DNA of 64,000 bases, taken from Methanobacteriota archaeon. GTDB taxonomy: Archaea > Methanobacteriota > Methanobacteria > Methanobacteriales > Methanobacteriaceae. The stretch lies in assembly GCA_963787255.1 (NCBI GenBank), contig CAWBCJ010000010.1, positions 32,001 to 96,000 of the forward strand, given 5' to 3'. The notes beneath the pieces were generated by a model. The model had not been told where the DNA came from. It ran no database searches and saw only the letters and a list, made by a program, of their open reading frames with translations. The translations under genes were made by a program, and so were the position numbers. Positions 18,974 through 22,791 of this stretch are shown here, piece after piece; the first letter of the stretch is position 1, and each line of letters begins with the position of its first letter.

Positions 18974-20185
18974 ATGTTATCAGAAGTCCCGGTAAGATAC
19001 TTTGGCTGCACTCACAGGGCAATTTCTCCAGAAGAAACTATAAAGAAAGTTAAGGACAAATTGAAAGCTGCAGGAGTCACAAGAATCGCTGAAATAACCC
19101 ATCTTGATAGGGTGGGAATACCAGTTTACTCTGCAATAAGGCCATCTGCTGCAGAAGGTGCAGTGAGCATTTATGCTGGAAAAGGTGCCACTAAAGACCA
19201 GGCAAAAGCATCTGCCATGATGGAAGCATTTGAAAGATATTCAGCAGAACCGCAAGAATCTGAAATAGAAAATAATTTGGTATGTGGTCTTTATGATGAA
19301 ATAGAAGGATGTATTAATCCTGAATCTCTTATTCTACCTAATTTATCATTTGATCCAAGGAAAAAGGAATTGAATTGGATAAAAACTGTAAACATCCGGG
19401 ACGATAATGAATATTTAACACCTGCAGACGCGGTTTTTCACCCATATAATTTCAAAAACAGTGTTAATTTATTCAAATCAAATACTAATGGGCTTGCATC
19501 GGGAAATAAAGTGGAAGAAGCTATATTCCATGGCATGACTGAAGTTATTGAAAGAGATGCATGGAGCTTATTTGAGATAAAGCGAAATAAAGCACCAGAG
19601 ATAAACCTAAAAAATATTGAAAATCCTTTAATAATTGAAATTGTGAATAAATTCGAAGGAGCAGGAATTAATATTAAGGTTGTGGATTTAACATCTGATG
19701 TTGAAGTAGCTACAATTGCAGCTGTTTCAGACGACACTGTTTTAAAAGACCCAGCATTGCTGACTTTAGGTGTTGGAACTCATTTGGATCCTGAAATAGC
19801 GGTATTAAGGGCTTTAACTGAAGTTGCTCAAAGCAGGGCGACCCAGATTCATGGAACAAGGGAAGACACAACTCGTGCAGTTTTTATGAGAAAAGCTGGT
19901 TACGAAAGGATGAAACGGATAAACAAACATTGGTTTGGTGAATCTGAAGATATTATAGAATTAGATGAAATTAAAAATAGGTCGGGAAAATCTTTTAAAG
20001 AAGATATAGAAACTTCAATGAAGTTATTAAAAAAAGCAGGTTTTGAAGACGTTCTATTTGTGGATCTCACAAAGCCAGAAATAGAAATACCTGTAGTAAG
20101 GGTTATTATTCCAGGAATGGAAGTTTATTCAGTAGATAGGGACAGGGTTGGGAAAAGACTTGTCAAACACTCAAAATCGCATTAA
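18974..20185 (+). CDS. ycaO: YcaO family McrA glycine thioamidation protein
   Basis: GTHR-like start, [55 protein letters not shown]. Confidence 0.92.
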
Positions 20186-21107
20186 GAAAATACTGCGCTG
20201 GACATTAGCAGTTTTAACTGTGATTATTATTATTTCAGGGCTTGGAATTAATTATTACACTACAATTGAGTATCTTACCTTTGGATTATTATCTAAAAAT
20301 TTGGCATTTCAGCTTCACTTCTGGATTTTTATTCCTTTTTTAATACTATTTTTGATTCATATCTTCATTAAACCTATTTTGAGGTTTTTAGAAAATGAAA
20401 AAATTAAAAACAAGTTAATAGTACTTCAATTGCGATTAAAAGAAAATATTACTGTTATTTTTATTATTATTGTTCTTCTTGGAATTTCTGTTTACCTTCT
20501 TGCGGGTCAATTTGGCCCATCAGAACCTATTAAGCTAGATAATGTAGAAGTAAAGGAATATAAAGGACAGAAATTATCTTCTGTAAATGATTTTAGGGAA
20601 AATTCAATAAAAGGACCCCAATACATTAATATAACTAATTACCGGCTTGAAGTCACAGGATTGGTGACTAATCCTAAAAATTATACCTATGACGAGGTTA
20701 TTCGAAACCATCAAAACTATGAAAAGGTTGTTAAACTGGACTGTGTTGAAGGATGGGACGTAACTATTCTCTGGGAAGGAGTGCTTGTAAAAGATCTTAT
20801 AAGAGAAACAATTCCATCTTCAAATGCAAATACTGTTATATTATATGCTTATGATGGATATTCAACTTCTTTTCCATTGGATTACATTGAAAATAACAAT
20901 ATTTTAATGGCTTATAAAATGAACAACGCCACAATTCCGCCAGAGCGAGGTTTTCCATTTCAACTGGTAGCTGAGAGTAAATGGGGTTATAAATGGGTTA
21001 AGTGGATAACAAAGGTTGAATTATCTGATGATCCTAATTATCAGGGTTACTGGGAAAGTAGAGGATATTCTAATTCAGGGAATCTGAATGAAAGCTTTTT
21101 GAAATGA
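20148..21107 (+). CDS. Membrane-anchored sulfite-oxidase-family (MsrP/YedY-like) molybdopterin oxidoreductase with N-terminal His-X13-His TM module
   Basis: LEVTGLV, LDCVEGW (Mo-ligand Cys), [37 protein letters not shown]; three N-terminal TM helices. Confidence 0.85.
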
Positions 21108-21111
21108 TTTT

Positions 21112-21543
21112 CTAAAAGTTAACATTAATTATTTCTTTGAATCGCTTAAAATGAACGTGAATATGCAAGATAGTTGTGATTGCCAGTATTATGCCTGCTT
21201 CAACGTGCCAAAAGAGTAAATTAAAATCAAATGGAAGAATAAGATTAAAATCAGCCAATAGTGACAATATCACTCCAGCAATGCCCACAAATAAAAAGCT
21301 ACCAACTAACACTAAACTCCATATTTGTTTAAAAGTGCGCCTTTTTATGTTTTTATTATCATATAGAAGGTAAGTTATGAGATAAAACATGAATAAAGCT
21401 AATATAATTGGTAAAATATTATAATCAGGATTATAGCCTTCAGCTACACTGGATGATGGTTCTTCATTTCCCTGATCCTGAGCATAAACGGTGATTGGAG
21501 TTAAAAAGGTAATAATAAGTACAATTATTAATATTTTCCTCAT
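21112..21543 (-). CDS. DUF4405-like membrane protein with His-X13-His helix
   Basis: Signal-like N-terminus plus 3 TM; FWHVEAGIILAITTILHIHVH. Confidence 0.6.
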   Translation of the reverse strand: MRKILIIVLIITFLTPITVYAQDQGNEEPSSSVAEGYNPDYNILPIILALFMFYLITYLLYDNKNIKRRTFKQIWSLVLVGSFLFVGIAGVILSLLADFNLILPFDFNLLFWHVEAGIILAITTILHIHVHFKRFKEIINVNF

Positions 21544-21547
21544 TTTA

Positions 21548-21868
21548 TCACGCTAAAGGTCTTAAAGTTATTTTTTTAAAGGGTTTCCTGTAGATGTATA
21601 TATGAATCAGTGCAATTGGAACTAAAGCTATACCAAACTCAACATGCCAGAAAAGCACGGTAGAAGATAGAGGGGTGCTTATACTGTATTCTATTAGAAC
21701 TGTGAGAAGAAGTGATAAAGTTACTGTGATTATACAACTTATTAAAATTATTATGTTCCATATTTTCATATGAACTGCTTTATTGGTCACATTTTCTTTA
21801 TAAAGCACGTATGTTATTAAATATAAGAATATAACAGTCAATGAAATTGGAATGAATTCATATGGCAT
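21548..21868 (-). CDS. DUF4405-like membrane protein, paralog of 21112..21543
   Basis: PI..FLYLITY.LY..IW..FWHVEFGIALVPIALIHI. Confidence 0.6.
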   Translation of the reverse strand: MPYEFIPISLTVIFLYLITYVLYKENVTNKAVHMKIWNIIILISCIITVTLSLLLTVLIEYSISTPLSSTVLFWHVEFGIALVPIALIHIYIYRKPFKKITLRPLA

Positions 21869-22223
21869 TATAATACATATAATATGAGCATATATATTAA
21901 TCTTTAATTGGAAGGAATTTCATTATTTTTTGTTACTTGTTTCTATTTTCTGATAGACTGATCTTTATTATTGGATTTTTTTAATTATTATTTTTCTTTT
22001 GCTTGAAGGTTATCGAAATTTTTTTTGAGGAAGATGAGAATTAATATCAAAATATTAACAAAAAAGAATCATTAAATTCTTTTTAAATAGTCATCTAATG
22101 TCTAAATTGGAATTTAATAAACTTATAAAATTAATTCTTACGTTAATATCAAATTGAATAATTTAATTAACTATATATGCATCTGGCTTATAATAATACC
22201 GTTAAATCTAAATGGGGGATAAA

Positions 22224-22791
22224 ATGAAAAAATATGCATTATTTATAATAGCTATTTTAGCTTTAGTAGTTTTTGCATCTGGTTGTACAAGTTCAAGTAA
22301 TCAAATCTCAACTCAACCAACAGTAGCAACAAAAGCCTATTCTGGAAACGGAGTTTCATTCAGTTATCCTGAAAAATGGGAGCAGCTTCAGCAAAGTAAG
22401 TTAACCAAACGCAGTAGTAGCATTTGGAGATCCTAGATTCGGTGGATAACTCAACAGGAAATGTGAACACACTTGTTGTTGTTCAAAAAGTTGCAATGCC
22501 TTCAGGATCTACTCTTAAAACAAGTGTATGATTCTACATATCAACAATTTGCTCAGCAAGATTCAAGCTTTAAAACAATTTCTGACACCACAACAACAGT
22601 TGATGGTGACCACTGCTTACGTGAATACACATACAGTAAACGTTGATGGAGTTCAAAAACAGGAAAAAGCAGTATGGCTTGAGAAAAACGGTAATATTTA
22701 TGTTATACTCTGTGGTGCATTACCAAGCGTACTTTGAATAGTGAACAGGCTAATTTTATATGCGATAATAAATACTTTCAAAGTACAGTAA
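22224..22791 (+). pseudogene. PsbP-like lipoprotein with several frameshifts (possibly assembly errors)
   Basis: Lipobox [20 protein letters not shown], later VDGTTAY and KNGNIYVILCGA in shifting frames. Confidence 0.6.

Follow-up and report, generated by a model that had tools for sequence, protein, structure and literature searches.

The MsrP–MsrQ (YedY–YedZ) system of E. coli joins an outward-facing molybdenum (Mo) enzyme of the SUOX fold, with its Cys in a CVE(A/G)W motif, to a bis-His membrane partner encoded adjacent to it. Larger proteins in which haem and molybdenum cofactor (MoCo) domains are fused, such as Sco3746, have been described in actinobacteria, firmicutes, chloroflexi and euryarchaeota (Tooke et al, 2017; PMC5449189), and spectroscopy has shown that a DUF4405 protein and the small protein FezC, the latter with a homodimer model, contain haem b (Huang et al, 2024; 10.1101/2024.03.13.584918). 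Among archaea, MSRP homologues are noted as uncommon in a review of archaeal Msr proteins (PMC6211008; 2018). Here we describe a locus in a window of 64,000 nucleotides (the whole stretch analysed, from contig CAWBCJ010000010.1) of a Methanobacteriota archaeon, which encodes a 319-residue fusion protein, Mo319, and two small membrane proteins, S143 and S106, of 143 and 106 amino acids. The archaeon belongs to the genus Methanobacterium, going by the organisms named for close homologues of its proteins. We read Mo319 as a miniature, fused MsrPQ-like di-haem system, and think this somewhat likelier to be right than wrong. The reading builds on observed domain identities, the relation between fused and split forms, residue conservation, gene contexts and missing pathways, from which we infer that Mo319 dimerises and binds haem, and also the direction of electron flow, substrate and topology.

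The Mo319 fusion and its two-gene relatives

Comparisons were made with 22 same-genus (Methanobacterium) relatives of the source genome (G000, 95% complete) and with a wider set of 80 loci, one genome per species, whose enzymes are 56–80% identical to Mo319. The latter come from Methanobacteriaceae, Thermoplasmatota, ANME-1, Methanocellales, DPANN-labelled metagenome-assembled genomes (MAGs) and Dehalococcoidia/Chloroflexota, with MAG labels as deposited. The fused architecture of Mo319 is present at four of the 80 loci. At the remaining 76 the enzyme is a short form lacking the N-terminal module of two transmembrane (TM) helices, and the ~221-residue orthologues of M. formicicum, M. paludis and M. 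petrolearium likewise lack the first two TM helices. The module is encoded apart at 46 loci, by an open reading frame (ORF) of 65–116 codons immediately downstream of the short-form gene, often with overlapping stop and start; these stand-alone modules align to Mo319 residues 1 to ~82. At two further loci (L069 and L083) a different small ORF, for a bis-His membrane protein, lies just upstream of the enzyme: the L069 partner scores above the DUF4405 cut-off (31.9 bits), and that of L083 belongs to the family of S143 and S106. An earlier note, made from the window alone, had tied an N-terminal half-cytochrome module to the enzyme, and these fused and downstream arrangements bear this out. As judged from these alignments, Mo319 is a clade-specific fusion of a widespread two-gene unit.

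The module is strongly conserved. Across an alignment of 52 modules, G31, G33, T44, G46, K50, H57 and H71 are invariant, each of the two His residues being present in 52/52. A profile of the module, run against 1.84 billion representative proteins, gave 238 matches at E<=1e-3; among the best 150 of these 238, 146 have a length of 48–119 residues and 126 keep the exact H-X13-H spacing. By eye, most of the remaining matches are either truncated or carry two additional residues within the His pair, and two lack the second His. The only longer proteins found to contain the module were 29 fused Methanobacterium proteins, in itself weak evidence. Ni_hydr_CYTB (PF01292) is matched at E<=0.01 by 50 of the 52 modules, at profile positions ~94–161 of 179, which correspond to its last two helices, and DUF4405 (PF14358) is matched at the same threshold by 30. 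Two of six stand-alone modules scanned exceed the Ni_hydr_CYTB cut-off, at 32.6 bits. For Mo319 itself, the profile hidden Markov model (HMM) searches suggested by the earlier note came out unevenly. Oxidored_molyb is found at residues 160–302 (Pfam, E 5.1e-31), whereas residues 8–74 stay under the Ni_hydr_CYTB cut-off of 30.1 (E 1.1e-5; 25.7 bits in the whole protein, 29.3 for the module alone) and the DUF4405 score of 14.5–18.4 bits (E 0.053) is under the cut-off of 26.7. A whole-genome search of G000 with DUF4405 missed Mo319 and returned a single weak match, a paralogue of the S143/S106 family (E 0.06). Taken together, these sequence comparisons support the view that the module is a conserved cytochrome-b-like half unit and a dedicated partner of this enzyme subfamily.

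The C-terminal domain is an MsrP/YedY-like enzyme, an assignment already made in the earlier note and upheld by Pfam, the best NCBIfam match, Foldseek and motif alignment. An AlphaFold2 (AF2) model of Mo319, computed from an alignment of 72 sequences with the stand-alone modules left out, has a mean predicted local distance difference test (pLDDT) score of 78.6, and consists of helices at residues 4–32, 34–43, 50–82, 84–98 and 101–121 followed by a beta-rich domain. The first Foldseek hit with this model was E. coli YedY/MsrP (1xdy_A, E 2.8e-12, TM-score 0.57 on target), with SorA (2blf_A, E 3.0e-12) and YedY 1xdq also among the best fold matches and PruR pterin-binding proteins far lower in the list (E 5.7e-6 to 5e-5). 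In a profile alignment with YedY (1xdq), LDCVEGW..ILW.G of Mo319 corresponds to MRCVEAWS..VPW.G, and KWGYKWIKW to KYGFKGIKS. Cys199 aligns with the Cys of the YedY motif MRCVEAWS and with the Cys at position 104 of SorA, and is invariant in 72/72 enzyme sequences; 40 alignment columns are invariant across these 72, and Mo319 keeps all 40. G000 has two MoeA genes, so the pterin cofactor can be made. The genome also encodes a separate SUOX paralogue, which is soluble, has no TM helix, retains the canonical Arg and is 30% identical to Mo319. This paralogue (234 residues; L106:2276-2980 on the minus strand, in G000:C25; motif GGPVRLVVP) is found in most same-genus genomes and lies directly downstream of a gene for a 641-residue thioredoxin-domain protein, DUF255-like by eye.

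Within the module, SGLGI lies in TM1, LTxGLLSK in the outside loop, and His57 and His71 in TM2. The two His residues would lie ~21 Å apart on one face of one helix, and such a spacing on one helix face is the geometry of two-haem cytochromes b. The last helix of FdnI has two haem-ligand His residues 14 apart, as here. The module would represent the C-terminal helix pair of a prokaryotic cytochrome b561, which in that family bears two axial His residues at this distance. Since one module supplies only half of the ligands, we propose that the enzyme dimer pairs two modules into a four-helix bundle that would hold two b-type haems with bis-His ligation, each close to a different face of the membrane. 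Complex predictions with two modules and two haems scored 0.36, 0.33 and 0.37, against a mark of 0.42 and controls of 0.00, and weigh neither for nor against this pairing. The outward YedY/MsrP-type Mo (or tungsten, W) pterin domain would be held by one TM tether, and electrons from a cytoplasmic donor would pass through the haems across the membrane to the Mo centre. There they would drive the reduction of extracellular sulfoxides, of which methionine sulfoxide in proteins of the cell surface is the likeliest. Because the organism has no known haem synthesis, it would need to scavenge haem, or a different redox cofactor would stand in.

The genes around the enzyme are consistent with such a role. 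Blast clustering of neighbouring ORFs placed msrB at six and msrA at five of the 80 loci, with a union of eight, under several phylum-level labels. At L029, Pfam confirmed both SelR (E 4.6e-51) and PMSR (E 1.7e-64), and at L079 the order is enzyme, module, msrB, with overlapping ends. Desulfoferrodoxin adjoins the enzyme in L082 (Pfam), and a peroxiredoxin-like ORF lies near it in L031 (by eye). Because of this context and the YedY-type motifs, the favoured role is extracellular repair or reduction of sulfoxides, like that of MsrPQ, with methionine sulfoxide reductase as the candidate activity suggested by the msr neighbours. The earlier note had also allowed for a sulfur-oxyanion reductase, for which we found no support beyond the fold. 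As a separate observation, nine module-less loci of Dehalococcoidia type (L050, L058, L064, L067, L074, L075, L081, L088 and L089) have a DUF1648 protein with 4–5 TM helices and a glycyl-tRNA-synthetase-like gene after the short-form enzyme; the DUF1648 protein may be an alternative membrane neighbour.

Features of the locus, in coordinates of the 64-kb window
Feature	Position	Strand	Basis and remarks
Mo319 gene (319 aa)	20148..21107	+	ORF; 2-TM cytochrome-b-like module, TM anchor and extracytoplasmic YedY/MsrP-like SUOX-fold domain (predicted)
2-TM half-cytochrome-b module, residues 1 to ~82	20148..20393	+	Alignment of 52 modules, profile matches
His57 codon, outer-leaflet candidate axial ligand	20316..20318	+	Invariant in module alignment
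His71 codon, inner-leaflet candidate axial ligand	20358..20360	+	Invariant in module alignment
TM3, residues ~101-121	20448..20510	+	Alignment, helix in model, short-form leaders
SUOX-fold (Oxidored_molyb) catalytic domain, residues 126-319, outward-facing (predicted)	20523..21104	+	Pfam, Foldseek, conservation
Cys199 codon, predicted Mo(W)-ligand Cys in LDCVEGW	20742..20744	+	Invariant; aligns with YedY and SorA Cys
S143 (143 aa), signal-peptide-like N-terminus, three TM helices, H113/H127 on last helix	21112..21543	-	ORF, family alignment
S106 (106 aa), 3-TM paralogue of S143, H75/H89	21548..21868	-	ORF, family alignment
ycaO (methanogenesis marker 1, McrA-glycine thioamidation)	18974..20185	+	TIGR03266, E 2.1e-166; context only

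The start codon of Mo319 is TTG at 20148 or possibly TTG at 20160, and from the former the gene overlaps the 3' end of ycaO by 38 nt. ycaO adjoins the enzyme gene in 11/11 same-genus loci and in all four fused loci of the wider set, and at none of the 76 short-form loci; the adjacency probably reflects clade-specific synteny or co-transcription rather than a functional link. TM3 of Mo319 has its counterpart, in the short-form enzymes, in the signal anchor or lipoprotein leader at the N-terminus; the cytoplasmic linker before TM3 is rich in Lys and Arg and has no twin-arginine motif. Small shares of the stretch (0.06) occur in two soil metatranscriptome runs, and only short contigs of relatives, 90–99% alike, lie on it. 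One of these, of 259 bases and ~96% identity, spans the ycaO/Mo319 junction of a close relative; since RNA libraries may contain DNA, this shows little.

Haem supply and what the histidine pairs may bind

Several findings weigh against reading Mo319 as a di-haem sulfoxide reductase, and the supply of haem is among them. AhbD and AhbC were not found in G000, where the best scores were 68.9 bits against a cut-off of 500 and 74.6 against 650, respectively; ferrochelatase and catalase were not found in this 95%-complete genome either, and AhbD exceeded its cut-off in none of 39 Methanobacteriales relatives. A 2026 comparative study reports that Methanobacteriota are unable to make haem (PMC13135261), and work cited there has the haem-dependent catalase of a relative needing external haemin. 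The earlier note, which suggested looking for ahb and hem genes in what it took to be a cytochrome-free methanogen, is upheld as to the host lineage: haem synthesis is lacking, with none of AhbC, AhbD and ferrochelatase found in G000, in line with that study. Separately, many Methanobacteriales genomes (G004, G007-G009, G011, G014-G018, G021, G022 and others) encode a ~515-residue radical SAM protein that matches AhbD over its full length at 200–245 bits (cut-off 500); no such match was found in G000.

Export of the enzyme poses a second difficulty. TatC, of the twin-arginine translocation (Tat) pathway, was not found in G000 or in eight of the ten relatives with an intact Mo319 orthologue. 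Mo319 has no RR motif, and a single, doubtful twin-arginine pattern occurs among 76 short-form leaders. To our knowledge, all characterised extracytoplasmic Moco enzymes are Tat-exported, and delivery of the cofactor to an exported domain without Tat is a puzzle that our reading leaves unexplained. The enzyme itself also departs from its better-known relatives: the top NCBIfam match, MsrP (NF003767 equivalog), reaches 66.2 bits and is under the cut-off of 207, and the Mo319 subfamily has Gln where YedY and SorA have the Arg of G-x-P-x-R-L-V. At 28 of the 80 loci no small partner ORF was found in the stretch around the enzyme gene, and no cytoplasmic electron donor for Mo319 was identified. Finally, an orthologue is carried by 13 of the 22 same-genus relatives, in ten of which it is intact (72–83% identity), and Mo319 is dispensable, because the gene is broken in the other three (G004, G005 and G009). 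The broken copies (G004:C64:29063-29925, G005:C2:594881-595832 and G009:C8:452040-453003) contain stops or frame changes, and the adjoining S pair is intact.

These difficulties invite the explanation that the modules are not haem proteins at all. The His residues might bind another metal or a self-made tetrapyrrole, or have a structural or proton-related role; the SUOX domain might hold a simple pterin, as in PruR, and the unit would then be one that senses or binds. We regard this as unlikely, if well worth keeping in mind. Besides the failure to find haem synthesis and Tat, it can draw on the distribution of the S family, which carries the same His spacing and occurs in 9/9 and 5/5 genomes of two small-genome Methanobacteriales genera (~1.5–1.8 Mb), and whose larger members have an N-domain named after a Methanocaldococcus jannaschii protein; these small-genome genera and M. 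jannaschii grow without added haem. It can also point to the Foldseek matches of the Mo319 model to PruR, and to the Gln that replaces the Arg of the Moco motif. However, the PruR structures (PDB 7rkb, 7kom), which are small exported SUOX-fold domains, are matched far more weakly than YedY and SorA, and PruR lacks the Mo-ligand Cys, which in the Mo319 family is invariant along with the YedY-type motifs. The module matches, 50/52 of them to cytochrome b561-type profiles with His at haem-ligand spacing, are likewise at odds with a non-haem role. Moreover, the DUF4405 and FezC proteins that were tested do bind haem b (10.1101/2024.03.13.584918), and the haemin-fed catalase mentioned above (PMC13135261) indicates that external haem can be used in a relative. 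By analogy with such proteins, the Mo319 module would bind haem b.

The neighbouring S143/S106 pair

The earlier note had picked out three ORFs with His pairs 14 residues apart in a hydrophobic stretch, and the ORF listing and a scan of hydrophobic segments agree: H57/H71 in Mo319, H113/H127 in S143 and H75/H89 in S106. Among 98 six-frame open frames of >=100 codons (22,248 residues) in the window, just two H-X13-H segments have a mean Kyte-Doolittle value >=1.5, and both are at this locus, whose third scores 1.45. The conservation of the His residues, which that note had wished to see examined, is complete in the alignments of both families. Since H57/H71 are invariant in 52/52 modules and H75/H89 in 15/15 S-family members, a chance origin of the pairs is excluded.

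S143 and S106 are 32% identical and share a 3-TM core. The family to which they belong has Y3, Y16, W37, H75, E77 and H89 invariant, shows the motifs Y..P, KIWN and (F/Y)WH(V/A)E...H, and is encoded in pairs of a small and a large member. A profile of the family found pairs in 21 of the 22 same-genus relatives, in every genome of the two small-genome genera referred to above and in 36/41 relatives overall; in a phylum sample it matched 72/151 Methanobacteriales genomes, mostly with 2, 4 or 6 matches. G000 has three further pairs. The usual operon consists of the small member, the large member (signal peptide and Cys-rich N-domain), an ArsR-type regulator and a small membrane protein. This N-domain corresponds to PF27309, MJ0753_N, a name taken from a protein atlas. 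S143 is a 'large' member yet lacks the Cys-rich MJ0753_N, in place of which it has just a signal peptide and a short acidic stretch; S paralogues in G000 do carry the domain, and the G002 orthologue has it in part.

Three side observations concern these paralogues and their surroundings. Large members (L099:4133-4960, L100:2805-3479 and L101:2197-2802) carry the conserved motif C-x3-C-P-Y-G-L-x-N-D-P-Y-P-G-Q-C-x-R-Y-x-D-L-N-G-D-G-x-C-D, which is that of the MJ0753_N domain, followed by a Ser/Thr-rich linker, and with its four Cys and DxNxDG this extracytoplasmic motif may be a metal or disulfide site. G000 also contains three near-identical ~6 kb segments, at or near contig ends (L097, C21:1-6612; L098, C10:1-6500; L099, C20:1-9000), that encode a HEAT-repeat protein, a nitroreductase-like protein, S-small and S-large, an ArsR-type regulator, a small membrane protein and FHA-like proteins; the C10 and C20 copies appear to have some of these genes (nitroreductase-like, S-large, HEAT-repeat) split or disrupted. 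In the window itself, positions 22212-22737 (plus strand) hold a 74-codon ORF with a lipoprotein-type leader (…VFASGC) and then overlapping ORFs in other frames. This may be a frameshifted lipoprotein gene, homologues of which adjoin the S pair in relatives.

The earlier note had proposed that the three His modules form one hetero-oligomeric di-haem wire feeding the Mo domain. All three do have H-X13-H in a helix predicted to be oriented the same way, and the genes are adjacent here and in several relatives. The S-family HMM weakly matches the module (E ~1e-3). In L083, the short-form enzyme has no 2-TM module and the S-family protein is encoded directly before it, so that S-type proteins may be able to serve this enzyme. 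The predicted co-occurrence of the three genes nevertheless holds only in part: eight same-genus genomes have the S pair without the enzyme, which is found in 13 relatives against 21 for the pair. In the three of these enzyme-less genomes that were examined (G007, G014 and G021) the lipoprotein, pth and kinase-like genes still flank the pair on its other side, as in the window, and in G017 ~4 kb separate the enzyme gene from the pair. The genes here are convergent and so on separate transcripts, and most enzyme loci outside the clade have the module without an S protein. Although hhalign aligned both His pairs of the S family with those of the module, it did so with a probability of 16.8%, and homology between the two is doubtful. 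A language-model atlas has S106 as the neighbour of a cluster labelled DUF4405-domain protein (score 0.95), and 4/15 S-family members weakly match Ni_hydr_CYTB; Pfam gave no DUF4405 match to S106 or S143. A single wire is thus very doubtful. On the evidence of distribution and synteny, the best reading of the S pair is as a unit of its own, with 3+3 TM helices and four His residues, that borders the ycaO–Mo319 block by happenstance. S143 and S106 would form a separate heterodimer-type pair, of a family common in Methanobacteriales, that is not an obligate part of the Mo319 unit. With an S-type protein in the partner position in another lineage, at L083, a functional link at the present locus may exist.

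A bolder proposition is that 'cytochrome-free' methanogens assemble transmembrane bis-His wires, both the Mo module and the S pairs (72/151 Methanobacteriales genomes), with a redox tetrapyrrole or metal that the cell supplies by means other than the known haem pathway, and mature a Mo-pterin enzyme outside the cell without Tat. We hold this to be distinctly unlikely. If it were true, it would imply an undescribed route of cofactor supply or export together with a membrane electron path, in organisms thought to have neither.

Orientation, retention and comparison with known systems

The SUOX domain is predicted to face outward, because the N-terminus and the TM2–TM3 linker of Mo319 are rich in Lys and Arg and because, among the 76 short forms, a lipobox-type Cys follows the leader in at least 38. 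The leaders of the exported enzymes are of Sec or lipoprotein type. An inverted arrangement, with the SUOX domain in the cytoplasm and the module linking it to an extracellular electron partner, would need neither Tat nor external cofactor loading, and would remove the paradox of Moco export. We consider it highly improbable: both the Lys/Arg clusters and the lipobox signal peptides favour an outside Mo domain, the cleavable-looking signal peptide of S143 fits the same orientation of the His helix, and the genome already has the separate, TM-less SUOX paralogue. That what is left in this genome is a decaying remnant, no longer functional, as the pseudogenes in G004, G005 and G009 and the nine same-genus relatives in which no orthologue was found might suggest, is scarcely credible given an intact frame with 40/40 family-invariant residues, the ten intact orthologues and, as a weak hint since they may derive from DNA, the RNA-library contigs at the ycaO/Mo319 junction.

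If the Mo319 module does carry haem, the fused MsrPQ-like unit would be a minimal transmembrane electron route for the repair of oxidised surface proteins. It would serve Methanobacterium and many strict anaerobes, small-genome archaea and bacteria with the two-gene unit, and would be relevant to the oxygen tolerance of methanogens in soils and sediments. The unit also raises two puzzles, namely the source of haem (or a substitute) without its synthesis, and the loading of cofactor into a domain with a Sec or lipoprotein leader in the absence of Tat. The separate MJ0753-like pairs extend the same question to most free-living Methanobacteriales. We found no published description of this unit in methanogens or of a half-size partner, although Table S1 of the archaeal Msr review (PMC6211008) may list these proteins.

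Mo319-type loci resemble E. coli MsrP–MsrQ in the features set out at the beginning and in their genomic link to methionine sulfoxide repair genes. The membrane partners differ. MsrQ is a 6-TM ferric-reductase-domain protein, whereas the Mo319-type partner has two TM helices in ~80 residues and is related to cytochrome b561 and DUF4405. No MsrQ-type partner was found at the fused and split loci, where the 2-TM module stands instead; this applies to the loci, as no genome-wide PF01794 search was made. In addition, Mo319 has no Tat signal, its genome has no detectable TatC, its parts are fused in the window, and its MsrP score is 66 against 207. A further difference is that, as far as we know, this lineage has no quinone pool.

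The other described systems lie closer in particular respects. Sco3746, like Mo319, is one chain in which a membrane domain bearing His residues comes first, then a last TM helix and, at the C-terminus, a MoCo domain outside the cytoplasm; as described by Tooke et al (2017; PMC5449189), it has five TM helices, four His residues on TMDs 2–4 and two haems per chain, with a conserved twin-arginine before TMD5 and dual insertion by Sec and Tat. In contrast, Mo319 has three TM helices, two His residues on TM2 only, no RR and no Tat machinery that we could find. The Ni_hydr_CYTB cytochromes (FdnI, HyaC and cytochrome b561) have a four-helix bundle with four haem-ligand His residues in one chain, of which the module represents the last two helices only, with two His residues; since only half of the bundle is present, a second copy must give the other two ligands. 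The DUF4405 and FezC proteins described by Huang et al (2024; 10.1101/2024.03.13.584918) differ in being associated with ApbE flavinylation or ferrosomes rather than a Mo enzyme, and DUF4405 proper has six TM helices. They are nevertheless small membrane proteins with conserved central His residues, and the haem sites of FezC arise through a modelled homodimer, which is the logic proposed here. With a membrane partner of ~80 residues, Mo319 and its two-gene relatives would be the smallest MsrPQ-type design so far.

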